Below, one piece after another: positions 26,970-28,463 of a stretch of 54,845 nucleotides of DNA. Source of the stretch: an uncultured Dehalococcoidia bacterium (GTDB lineage: Bacteria; Chloroflexota; Dehalococcoidia; Lucifugimonadales; UBA1127); contig CAZCPU010000001.1 of assembly GCA_964499855.1 (NCBI GenBank), positions 1 to 54,845 on the forward strand, given 5' to 3'. The notes beneath the pieces are model-generated. The model did no database searches, was not told where the DNA came from, and was given only the letters and a program-made list of their open reading frames with translations. The position numbers were made by a program, and so were the translations under genes. The number at the start of each line of letters is the position of its first letter. Position 1 is the stretch's first letter.

Positions 26970-28463
26970 ATGGCAGAGGCAACGGCCGGGGCAATTCACG
27001 CACCGGAGTTCCCGGACGGCTTGGAGTGGCTCAACTCGGACGCACCGGTCCGGCTGGCGGACCTGAGGGGCAAACTGGTGCTCCTGGACTTTTGGACTTT
27101 CTGCTGAGTCAACTGCATGCACATACTTCCGCAGTTGCGGAAGCTGGAAGAAGCCTACCCAGAAGAGATAGTCGTGCTCGGCGTCCACTCCGCCAAGTTC
27201 CCGGCGGAGAAGGAGACCGACGCTGTCCGGCAGGCCATACTCCGCTACGACATCCGGCACCCCGTCGTGAACGACCGAGACTTCCAGGTATGGCAGCGCT
27301 ACGCGGCCCGAGCGTGGCCCTCCTTGTACATAATCGACCCCGAGGGAAAGGTGCTGGGAAAGCACGAAGGCGAGTACCGTTTCGAGGACCTAGACAACTT
27401 CCTCCACCCTCTCGTCGAAGCCTACGACATCAAGGGCCTCATCCAGCGCAGCCCGACGACGTGGACGCTGGAGCGCGACAAGCAGGCCGCGGAGAACGCC
27501 CTCGCTTTTCCGGGCAAGCTGCTCGCGGACGAGGCGGGCAACCGTCTCTTCATCGCCGACTCGGGCCACCACCGCATCGTGGTTGCCTCGCTCCAGGGCG
27601 AGGTGCAGGACGTCATTGGCGGCGGCGATCCCGGAATGAGAGACGGCAGTTACCTGGAAGCGCAATTCAACGACCCACAAGGCATGGCGCTGGACGGGGA
27701 CACGCTCTATGTCGCGGACAAGGAAAACCACGCGCTTCGCAAGGTTGACCTGGCCGCGAGGAAGGTCCAGACCATCTCCGGCACTGGAGAGGCCGCCATG
27801 ACCTTCATGCCCCCCGGCCCCGCGGCCGGCATGCCGCTTCGCTCGCCTTGGGACATTACGGTGGTAAACGGCACGCTCTATATTGCGATGGCCGGCACGC
27901 ACCAACTCTGGTCGATGGACATGGCGAGCAGCACCATCGGCCCCTTCGCAGGCAGCGGCCGCGAGGGACTCAGCGACGGCCCACTCAAGCAGGCCTGGCT
28001 CGCGCAGCCCACGGGCATTACGCACGACGGCAATGGACGCCTCTACTTCGCGGACAGCGAGACCAGCGCCGTGCGGTCGGCAACCACCGACGTGGCAGGT
28101 AGCGTCGAGACGCTCGTTGGCAAAGACCTCTTCGACTTCGGAGACCGCGATGGCATTGGCTCTCGCGTGCTCCTCCAGCACGTGCAGGGCGTTTGCTACA
28201 ACGACGGCGCGCTCTATATAGCAGACACATACAACAGCAAGATCAAGCGAGTCGACCCCGGCACCAAGGAGACCACGTCGATAATTGGCGGGCCGGAGTC
28301 CGGCTTTCAGGATGGAGCGTGGGGGGAAGCCCGTCTGAACGAGCCGTCGGGCGTGTCCTGCGCCAACGGGACGCTCTACATCGCGGACACCAACAATCAC
28401 GCCATCCGAGTCGCGGACCTCGGCACGGGGCAGGTGTCGACGTTGGAATTGCGGGGCTTGTGA
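26970..28463 (+). CDS. thioredoxin-fold + NHL-repeat protein with an in-frame TGA at 27105-27107 (candidate selenocysteine; otherwise a pseudogene or truncated gene)
   Basis: The track ORFs 26910..27107 and 27117..28463 are in the same frame. The joined reading is [45 protein letters not shown][TGA][31 protein letters not shown]..., so the TGA occupies the first Cys of the redox CxxC. A GGGAG SD lies 7 nt before the ATG at 26970. NHL-like repeats (LYIAD, LYVAD, LYFAD) follow. Confidence 0.65.
27126..27143 (+). promoter_or_regulatory. candidate bacterial SECIS-like hairpin
   Basis: CUUCCGC-AGUU-GCGGAAG is a perfect 7 bp stem. It starts 18 nt after the UGA, and the apical loop contains GU. Confidence 0.45.

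Follow-up and report, generated by a model that had tools for sequence, protein, structure and literature searches.

A Predicted Selenocysteine-Containing Form of the NHLRC2/SOQ1 Family in Dehalococcoidia and Related Uncultured Bacteria

An in-frame UGA codon at positions 27105-27107 of a 54,845-nucleotide DNA stretch from an uncultured Dehalococcoidia bacterium (assembly GCA_964499855.1, contig CAZCPU010000001.1; hereafter, the window) is very probably decoded as selenocysteine (Sec). As judged from sequence comparisons, this codon lies inside a gene for an oxidoreductase similar to human NHLRC2 and Arabidopsis SOQ1, and Sec would be inserted there by the standard mechanism involving SelB and a selenocysteine insertion sequence (SECIS). 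Sec had already been suggested for this codon in the initial annotation of the window, and the suggestion is supported here by a Sec/Cys pair at the catalytic position, by conservation of the UGA codon, and by a covarying hairpin restricted to the UGA-containing genes. The evidence that we regard as decisive comes from the comparison of sequences: TGA and the hairpin are co-conserved in more than 100 independent sequences, and the hairpin is missing in every Cys-containing form.

Conservation of UGA at the Catalytic Cysteine Position

The open reading frames (ORFs) 26910..27107 and 27117..28463 belong to one common frame, as the initial annotation had described. In the translation of 26910-28466, the TGA at 27105-27107 is the sole interruption; the ATG at 26970 lies 45 codons 5' of it, and all 448 downstream codons are open. 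UGA is not reassigned genome-wide, since the same gene terminates on TGA (28461-28463).

The motif DFWT[YF]CCINCMH was found in 13 of 13 aligned full-length homologs. The UGA column corresponds to the second Cys of the CC pair, that is, to the first Cys of CxxC. A scan of genomes, limited to one genome per species, yielded 55 loci. TGA was found at this column in 26 of the 55 species-level genomes (hereafter, Sec forms), and the other genomes have TGC or TGT (Cys forms). The assignment of UGA to the N-terminal redox Cys of a UxxC motif thus stands: all 13 homologs and 28 TGC/TGT genomes have Cys at this position.

The Sec forms belong mostly to Chloroflexota and were found in Dehalococcoidia/SAR202, Limnocylindria, Dormiibacterota, and soil "Chloroflexi CF" metagenome-assembled genomes (MAGs). 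Additionally, MAGs assigned to Chloroflexia, "Eisenbacteria," and Desulforudis have the Sec form (one MAG each). The Cys forms were found in Planctomycetota/Gemmatales, Armatimonadota, Kuenenia, Dictyobacter, and others. In three Cys forms (L021, L032, and L052; Promineifilaceae, Ardenticatenales, and an "Acidimicrobiia" MAG), YCCINC is replaced by YGCINC. Even these genomes retain the Cys aligned with U, as does every other Cys form, which makes the preceding Cys of the CC pair dispensable.

In a neighbor-joining tree, the Sec forms with an AGUU-type hairpin form one clade dominated by Chloroflexota, with a few Cys forms nested in it. The Planctomycetota clade consists of Cys forms only, and the Sec form of Desulforudis is separate. 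The Sec gene of the "Candidatus Eisenbacteria" MAG (L045) is almost identical to those of Limnocylindria (L030 and L033); the L045 contig is probably mis-binned.

Metagenomes were scanned with the pattern W-T-[FY]-C-TGA-[VI]-N-C only, the hairpin being excluded from the pattern. At least 120 loci were found. Among the matches listed, 116 are members of the family and 4 are chance matches in AT-rich contigs. In total, the Sec-form TGA recurs in approximately 140 independent assemblies, which originate from numerous studies and environments.

Among the genomes, an uncultured marine Dehalococcoidia chromosome (OX638292.1, 88% identity) is the closest; the chromosomes OZ244559.1 and OZ252245.1 also belong to the closest relatives. 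The DNA of other relatives contains the same in-frame TGA together with a conserved upstream peptide (L001, 78% identity; L002-L005, 66%). The peptide encoded upstream of UGA aligns with the N-termini of full-length Cys-form homologs. In 14 comparisons, the ratio of nonsynonymous to synonymous changes (pN/pS) was 0.10-0.41 for the 36 codons upstream of UGA, at pS of 0.42-0.94, and 0.00-0.71 for the downstream codons. The upstream ratio indicates that these 36 codons are translated, and purifying selection is observed on both sides of the conserved UGA.

Hairpin Downstream of the UGA Codon

A perfect 7-bp hairpin, CUUCCGC-AGUU-GCGGAAG, begins 18 nt past the UGA, exactly where the initial annotation had placed it. 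The published model of bacterial SECIS (bSECIS) elements includes a loop of 3-9 nt, an upper stem of 4-16 bp, G in the first two loop positions, a distance of 16-37 nt between UGA and the loop, and a minimum free energy of -7.5 kcal/mol or lower (PMC13188914). The window hairpin, previously proposed to be compatible with such a model, fits it in every respect: its loop, AGUU, has 4 nt and G in the second position, its stem has 7 bp, the spacing is 25 nt, and the energy, when it is folded alone, is -10.4 kcal/mol.

In total, 124 unique Sec-form sequences from all sources, including the metagenome matches listed, were analyzed, with AGUU occupying +28 to +31 in 102 of them. A strict bSECIS checker allowing no mismatches accepted 96 of the 124 Sec forms and none of the 28 Cys forms. 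Covariation was analyzed in alignment A2, containing 92 distinct 48-mers. The 7-bp stem is paired in 95.2% of the cells, as compared to 88.6 ± 0.5% in shuffled data, and none of 500 shuffles equaled it, a significance that is overstated because the sequences are related. Compensatory changes are present in five of the seven stem pairs, which are changed on both sides in a total of 48 cells, and slid registers of the stem are just 37-70% paired. In the same alignment, pair 1 is CG in 34, UA in 26, and UG in 19; pair 3 is UA in 68, CG in 9, and GC in 4; and pair 4 is CG in 85 and GC in 4. Thus, the hairpin, for which conservation in UGA-containing orthologs had been named as a check, is conserved with covariation and found in UGA forms only.

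Positions +24 to +37 past the UGA (UCCGCAGUUGCGGA) are 100% conserved in the Chloroflexota-type Sec forms from the genome loci. Inside this segment, four third-codon positions are invariant in Sec forms and 36-93% conserved in Cys forms. The peptide at the hairpin is PQLR[KE] in Sec forms. In Cys forms it is P[DE]L[AK][KR], encoded by CCCGAYCTN... and lacking the hairpin. This segment is a clean example of dual coding, since the part of helix α1 that reads PQLR[KE] is fixed by the SECIS.

Variants of the hairpin were also found. The closest complete genome (L010, 88% identity) has CUCCCGC…GCGGAAG at approximately +21 to +38, and its stem pair 3 is mismatched (C·A). It thereby represents a one-sided intermediate of the change from U-A to C-G, which L035 and several metagenome contigs show in full. 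A minority clade, in which the Sec forms encode PELEALE, has a second hairpin type, CC[AG]GAGC-UGGAN-GCKCUGG (for example, CCAGAGC-UGGAC-GCUCUGG), at approximately +24 to +45. The Sec forms of this clade are L065, L083, L092, L069, L070, and L118-L123; several of them, containing a single mismatch, do not pass the strict bSECIS check. The Sec form of Desulforudis (L060) has yet another sequence downstream of TGA.

Protein Family and Fold

The product of the gene is a 497-aa protein and a clear homolog of the NHLRC2/SOQ1 family, with a thioredoxin (Trx)-like domain and, after it, a six-bladed NHL propeller. For profile searches of the read-through protein, C was put in place of U. The protein matches the Pfam families Thioredoxin_8 (51.3 bits, profile positions 1-94 of 94), AhpC-TSA (PF00578; 45.6 bits, cutoff 26), and Redoxin (PF08534; 31.6 bits, cutoff 26.6), as well as the NHL repeats (E-value 2.6e-33). 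No NCBIfam model, including those for selenoproteins, matched the read-through protein at its cutoff. The best one was ResA (64 bits, cutoff 170), and WAxxUGC_long scored 18.6 bits (cutoff 300).

Sequence searches matched the protein to Arabidopsis SOQ1 (7DJJ, E-value 1.5e-130) and human NHLRC2 (6GC1, E-value 1.2e-115), with approximately 41-43% identity. In the alignment with SOQ1, FWTYCCINCMH is opposite FWTFC[U]VNCMH of the window protein. The AlphaFold model has a mean predicted local distance difference test value (pLDDT) of 91.1 and a predicted template modeling score (pTM) of 0.88. In this model, strand 36-42 is encoded 5' of UGA and helix 53-62 is encoded 3' of it, and the six-bladed propeller follows. 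The best Foldseek matches are SOQ1 (7DJK, TM score 0.79) and NHLRC2 (6GC1, TM score 0.76), over approximately 510 columns. A conserved W-P in the window protein and its homologs corresponds to the cis-Pro position. Both sequence and fold therefore place the protein in this family, in line with its initial description as a Trx/NHL-repeat protein.

No N-terminal hydrophobic signal, HAD domain, or transmembrane helix was found in the 497-aa protein. The C-terminal domain (CTD) with its Cys pair is also absent, and the protein stops just past the propeller. Among the matches listed, 95 of the 103 complete Sec forms have the same two-domain length. The CTD is present in 16 of the 29 complete Cys forms, and this contrast between Sec and Cys forms is confounded by phylogeny. 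L113 is the sole Sec form among the matches listed that keeps both the CTD and its Cys pair (…VYYCQAEEERLCLI…). The CTD is reported to be non-conserved and to be lacking in most bacterial homologs (PMC6107167), so it does not define the core of the family.

Comparison With Known Systems

Sec at the first CxxC position of a Trx fold, together with a SECIS in the coding region, represents the commonest kind of bacterial selenoprotein. The gene analyzed here resembles the known Trx-fold UxxC selenoproteins in having Sec first in CxxC and a SECIS just downstream in the coding sequence. The known families differ in being listed as single-domain redoxins, and none is described with an NHL propeller. 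The hairpin resembles the model based on E. coli fdhF and bSECISearch, being a coding stem-loop after UGA with a small loop that contains G and then U, at a distance of 16-37 nt. It differs from the fdhF element in that the stem is perfect and minimal (7 bp), the loop is a tetraloop, a bulged U is absent, and the sequence is unrelated.

With NHLRC2 and SOQ1, the window protein shares the Trx-like domain, the NHL propeller, and the motif CC(I/V)NC-M-H. It differs from both in having Sec at the second Cys of the motif (C431 in SOQ1, C90 in NHLRC2). In SOQ1, the second Cys of the motif and its last one form the redox pair C431-C434, with a midpoint potential (Em) of -274 mV. Electrons move from this pair to two Cys of the CTD, a domain to which methionine sulfoxide reductase activity is ascribed (bioRxiv 10.1101/2024.11.01.621559). 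The CTD pair of SOQ1 that takes electrons from the Trx site, C1006/C1012, has no counterpart in the window protein, which lacks the CTD. In NHLRC2, the motif is located at the N-terminus of helix α1, in a cleft facing the propeller (PMC6107167). NHLRC2 was inactive in an insulin reduction assay, and its authors therefore doubted a thiol-disulfide role (PMC6107167). Bacterial homologs, including those from Chloroflexi, were noted in the same work (PMC6107167).

An inventory of 119 selenoprotein families published in 2026 contains no NHL or NHLRC2/SOQ1 family. It does contain generic entries, namely Prx-like thiol:disulfide oxidoreductase (PF00578), Redoxin family (PF08534), thiol:disulfide interchange protein (PF13098), and thiol-disulfide isomerase-like (cd02966). 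The term "NHL" is absent from the text of this inventory and from the BSepDB, GOS, and Sargasso Sea papers. In the full-text literature searched, no Sec form of NHLRC2/SOQ1 or of an NHL-repeat family was found, nor anything relevant on selenoproteins of SAR202 or Chloroflexota. The NHLRC2/SOQ1 Sec form is set apart from the listed generic families (representatives WP_010940744.1, HEU0032618.1, and MGB1650493.1) by their descriptions only. Its Trx domain passes the cutoffs of PF00578 and PF08534 and has U-V-N-C, as the generic UxxC families require. In earlier surveys of metagenomes, short reads from this gene could have been assigned to a generic Prx-like/Trx-like family. The inventory's "Redoxin family protein" HEU0032618.1 may be the same family already annotated with U; against this, the 120 top clusters of the soil clade are all truncated calls. 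The mechanism seems to be ordinary bacterial Sec recoding, and the novelty seems to lie in a family not previously recognised as Sec-containing.

Selenocysteine Machinery in Related Sequences

The window and all loci (1.27 Mb) were searched by tblastn with SelA, SelB, and SelD of E. coli. Besides SelD on contig L156, just EF-Tu-type GTPases were found. A candidate SelB-like match was observed on L179. No tRNA-Sec was found by ARAGORN in the window or in 25 related loci. In L023, immediately past the Sec-form gene, ARAGORN reported a 90-nt "tRNA-Pro(ggg)" with an odd anticodon position (3177-3266, + strand). It has no Rfam tRNA match and is probably false.

The marine metagenome contig L156 (UPTF01000132, 44% GC) contains both a Sec-form ortholog and a SelD gene with an in-frame UGA. 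The SHCAG-U-AAK motif of this SelD is the known UxxK Sec form, at the position of E. coli Cys17. The SelD hairpin has 8 bp (AAGAUCUG-GUU-CAGAUCUU), and its loop is 27 nt past its UGA. It resembles the SECIS of the Trx-NHL gene in the apical GUU and in the spacing from UGA. Marine Dehalococcoidia MAGs are listed in BSepDB with 46 and 49 selenoprotein genes (PMC13326102). The Sec machinery is presumably present in the genome analyzed here as well.

Alternative Explanations

Several points weigh against decoding of this UGA as Sec. The genes selA, selB, selD, and tRNA-Sec were not found in the 54.8-kb window by tblastn and ARAGORN, which agrees with the initial annotation. The SelB-like tblastn matches in the window are EF-Tu (16603-17793) and another GTPase (5409-6029). 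In Rfam searches, nothing matched the window at this site at gathering thresholds, and nothing matched on four related loci. The fold of the single 81-nt sequence is unexceptional (z = -1.3), and so it does not carry the case. Of the unique Sec forms, 28 of 124 fail the strict checker, most of them having one mismatch or the second hairpin type. The shuffle control overstates significance, and the 102 sequences used for the pair counts were picked for AGUU at +28 to +31. Finally, the proposed incorporation of selenium rests on sequence evidence, and the carriers are all uncultured.

Under one alternative, Sec is not used: an ordinary amino acid (Trp, Cys, Arg, or Gly) is inserted by read-through or reassignment of the UGA, and the hairpin would just stimulate read-through. 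The absence of Sec machinery from the window and the sequence-based nature of the Sec case speak for this explanation, which we nevertheless consider very improbable. Global reassignment is contradicted by the TGA terminator of the same gene. The UGA stands exactly at the redox Cys, forming a classic Sec/Cys pair, and the hairpin fits the bSECIS model in its loop, the position of G, and spacing. Moreover, the apical GUU and the distance from UGA are common to the hairpin of the Sec-containing SelD on the ortholog-bearing contig L156, and the lineage is reported to be rich in selenoproteins (PMC13326102).

Slightly less probable still is that the current database annotation is correct. In that case, a 448-aa NHL-repeat protein would start at ATG 27117 (Met50), and the upstream 45-codon ORF would be a separate small gene or non-coding. 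Gene callers place the start at Met50 in every database entry seen, and the annotation of L001 contains a separate upstream ORF of 45 aa. The closest approximately 25 protein clusters (59-99% identity) are nearly all of approximately 448 aa with 90% query coverage, which indicates that they were called from Met50. The 120 top clusters of the soil clade, including those sourced from NCBI, are all 433-451 aa long, and none is full-length. They are named YvrE, YncE, NHL repeat, or hypothetical. Among the 240 clusters listed, no relative called through the UGA is closer than approximately 61% identity. However, Met50 is the conserved Met of INCMH, also present in Cys forms, and no homolog truly starts at Met 27117. 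According to the structural model, the Met50 product would lack strand 36-42, which is central to the Trx fold, as well as a short strand and a helix. In profile searches, the 448-aa form enters Thioredoxin_8 at position 17, without the first 16 positions, and scores 26.9 bits, under the 27-bit cutoff, in agreement with the earlier remark that the downstream ORF alone begins in the middle of the fold. Purifying selection acts on the peptide encoded upstream, which can be aligned to the N-terminus of full-length homologs, and a start at Met50 leaves unexplained both the TGA at the catalytic Cys column and the covarying hairpin.

The last alternative is an error of sequencing or assembly, already considered in the initial annotation, or a recently inactivated pseudogene. 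From one window by itself, a change of TGC to TGA by error could not be excluded. The comparative data refute this alternative and leave it practically no probability, because TGA recurs in approximately 140 independent assemblies (26 species-level genomes and at least 116 metagenome contigs from many studies and environments), selection is purifying on both sides of UGA, and 448 downstream codons are open.

Proposed Mechanism and Significance

Decoding as Sec would proceed as follows. With the ribosome at the UGA, the hairpin 18 nt downstream, with its loop 25 nt past UGA, would recruit the SelB-GTP-Sec-tRNA(Sec) complex. Sec would then be inserted in competition with release factor 2, yielding C45-U46-V-N-C49. 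Dependence on SelB and actual incorporation of selenium at the UGA are thus predicted. Sec46 would take the place of the N-terminal attacking Cys of CxxC (C431 in SOQ1, C90 in NHLRC2). It would probably act as the attacking nucleophile, cycling between a selenolate and a Sec46-Cys49 selenylsulfide. An oxidised substrate would be reduced while held in the cleft against the propeller. The redox chemistry, the use of a substrate, and the cytoplasmic location of the protein are all predicted properties.

A broader proposal is much more tentative, and we regard it as rather unlikely in its full form. According to this proposal, the genes constitute a large unlisted selenoprotein branch of NHLRC2/SOQ1 in marine SAR202/Dehalococcoidia and soil Chloroflexota, lacking the CTD, in which Sec makes the CC(I/V)NC site a direct catalytic center. 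Such a site might act on a propeller-bound substrate, reducing, for example, its sulfoxides, sulfenic acids, or disulfides, whereas the SOQ1 site relays electrons to the CTD. If this is true, the natural Sec/Cys pair also identifies C90 as a catalytic redox residue in human NHLRC2, an essential protein that is mutated in FINCA disease.

It is well established that Sec/Cys pairs mark redox cysteines with a catalytic role. A pair at the equivalent of SOQ1 C431 and NHLRC2 C90 provides natural evidence for the second Cys of CCINC as a catalytic redox residue. Additionally, a candidate selenoprotein family is added to the selenoproteomes of SAR202 and soil Chloroflexota. Both this gene, which is also abundant, and its mis-annotation are widespread, with the Sec form in at least 26 species-level genomes and more than 140 truncated clusters at 90% identity among the matches listed. 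The redox domain is invisible in annotation because the databases cut the gene at the Sec codon and name the remainder YncE, YvrE, NHL-repeat, or hypothetical.

Gene Layout and Genomic Neighborhood

The coordinates of the gene and its elements are given in Table 1; all coordinates in the initial annotation proved right. The start at ATG 26970 and the GGGAG upstream of it were also found, with a spacer shorter by one nucleotide than the 7 nt indicated there.

Table 1. Features of the predicted selenoprotein gene in the window and of the related genes on contig L156.
Feature	Position	Strand	Comment
Selenoprotein gene, complete	26970..28463	+	497 codons including Sec46; single reading frame; own TGA terminator at 28461-28463
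Shine-Dalgarno-like GGGAG	26959..26963	+	6-nt spacer to ATG 26970; read from sequence
Predicted Sec codon UGA, residue 46	27105..27107	+	TGA kept at this column in genomes and metagenome contigs
Active-site motif C45-U46-V47-N48-C49	27102..27116	+	Family motif CC(I/V)NC with Sec second; alignments with homologs and SOQ1
Thioredoxin-like (TlpA/DipZ-like) domain, aa 22-142, split by UGA	27033..27395	+	Pfam Redoxin, AhpC-TSA, Thioredoxin_8; AlphaFold model
Six-bladed NHL-repeat beta-propeller, ~aa 177-497	27498..28460	+	Pfam NHL; AlphaFold; Foldseek
Predicted SECIS hairpin	27126..27143	+	Stem 27126-27132/27137-27143; apical loop AGUU 27133-27136; within L-P-Q-L-R-K codons
L156, SelD gene	5622-6668	-	TGA at 6620; SHCAG-[UGA]-AAK
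L156, Trx-NHL Sec form	TGA at 11296	-	~4.6 kb from the SelD gene

The GC content of the window is 64.8%. No other selenoprotein genes were apparent in the window: 133 TGA junctions were listed, and filtering of 376 by GC content at codon positions left 20. Eight of these 20 were inspected and proved to be off-frame, to have Arg-rich translations, or to be normal terminators; only the junction at 27105 survives.

Downstream of the gene, an IscA/HesB-like protein of Fe-S biogenesis (28910-29278, + strand) and a GCV_T/YgfZ-like folate-binding protein (29355-30434, + strand) are encoded. The same pair was found 3' of the gene in L001 and L002, where toxin-antitoxin or ABC-transporter genes intervene. 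Because these inserted genes separate the pair from the Sec gene, there is no tight operon. In L002-L005, the order tuf-secE-nusG-L11-L1-L10-L12 ... MFS - Trx-NHL is retained within 10 kb. In the window, a cluster of tRNA-Thr(UGU), tRNA-Tyr, and tRNA-Thr(GGU) is directly followed by EF-Tu (16234-17793 in total, + strand; EF-Tu at 16603-17793). A T-box leader (Rfam RF00230, 107 bits, full-length match) is located at 53066-53297 on the - strand.

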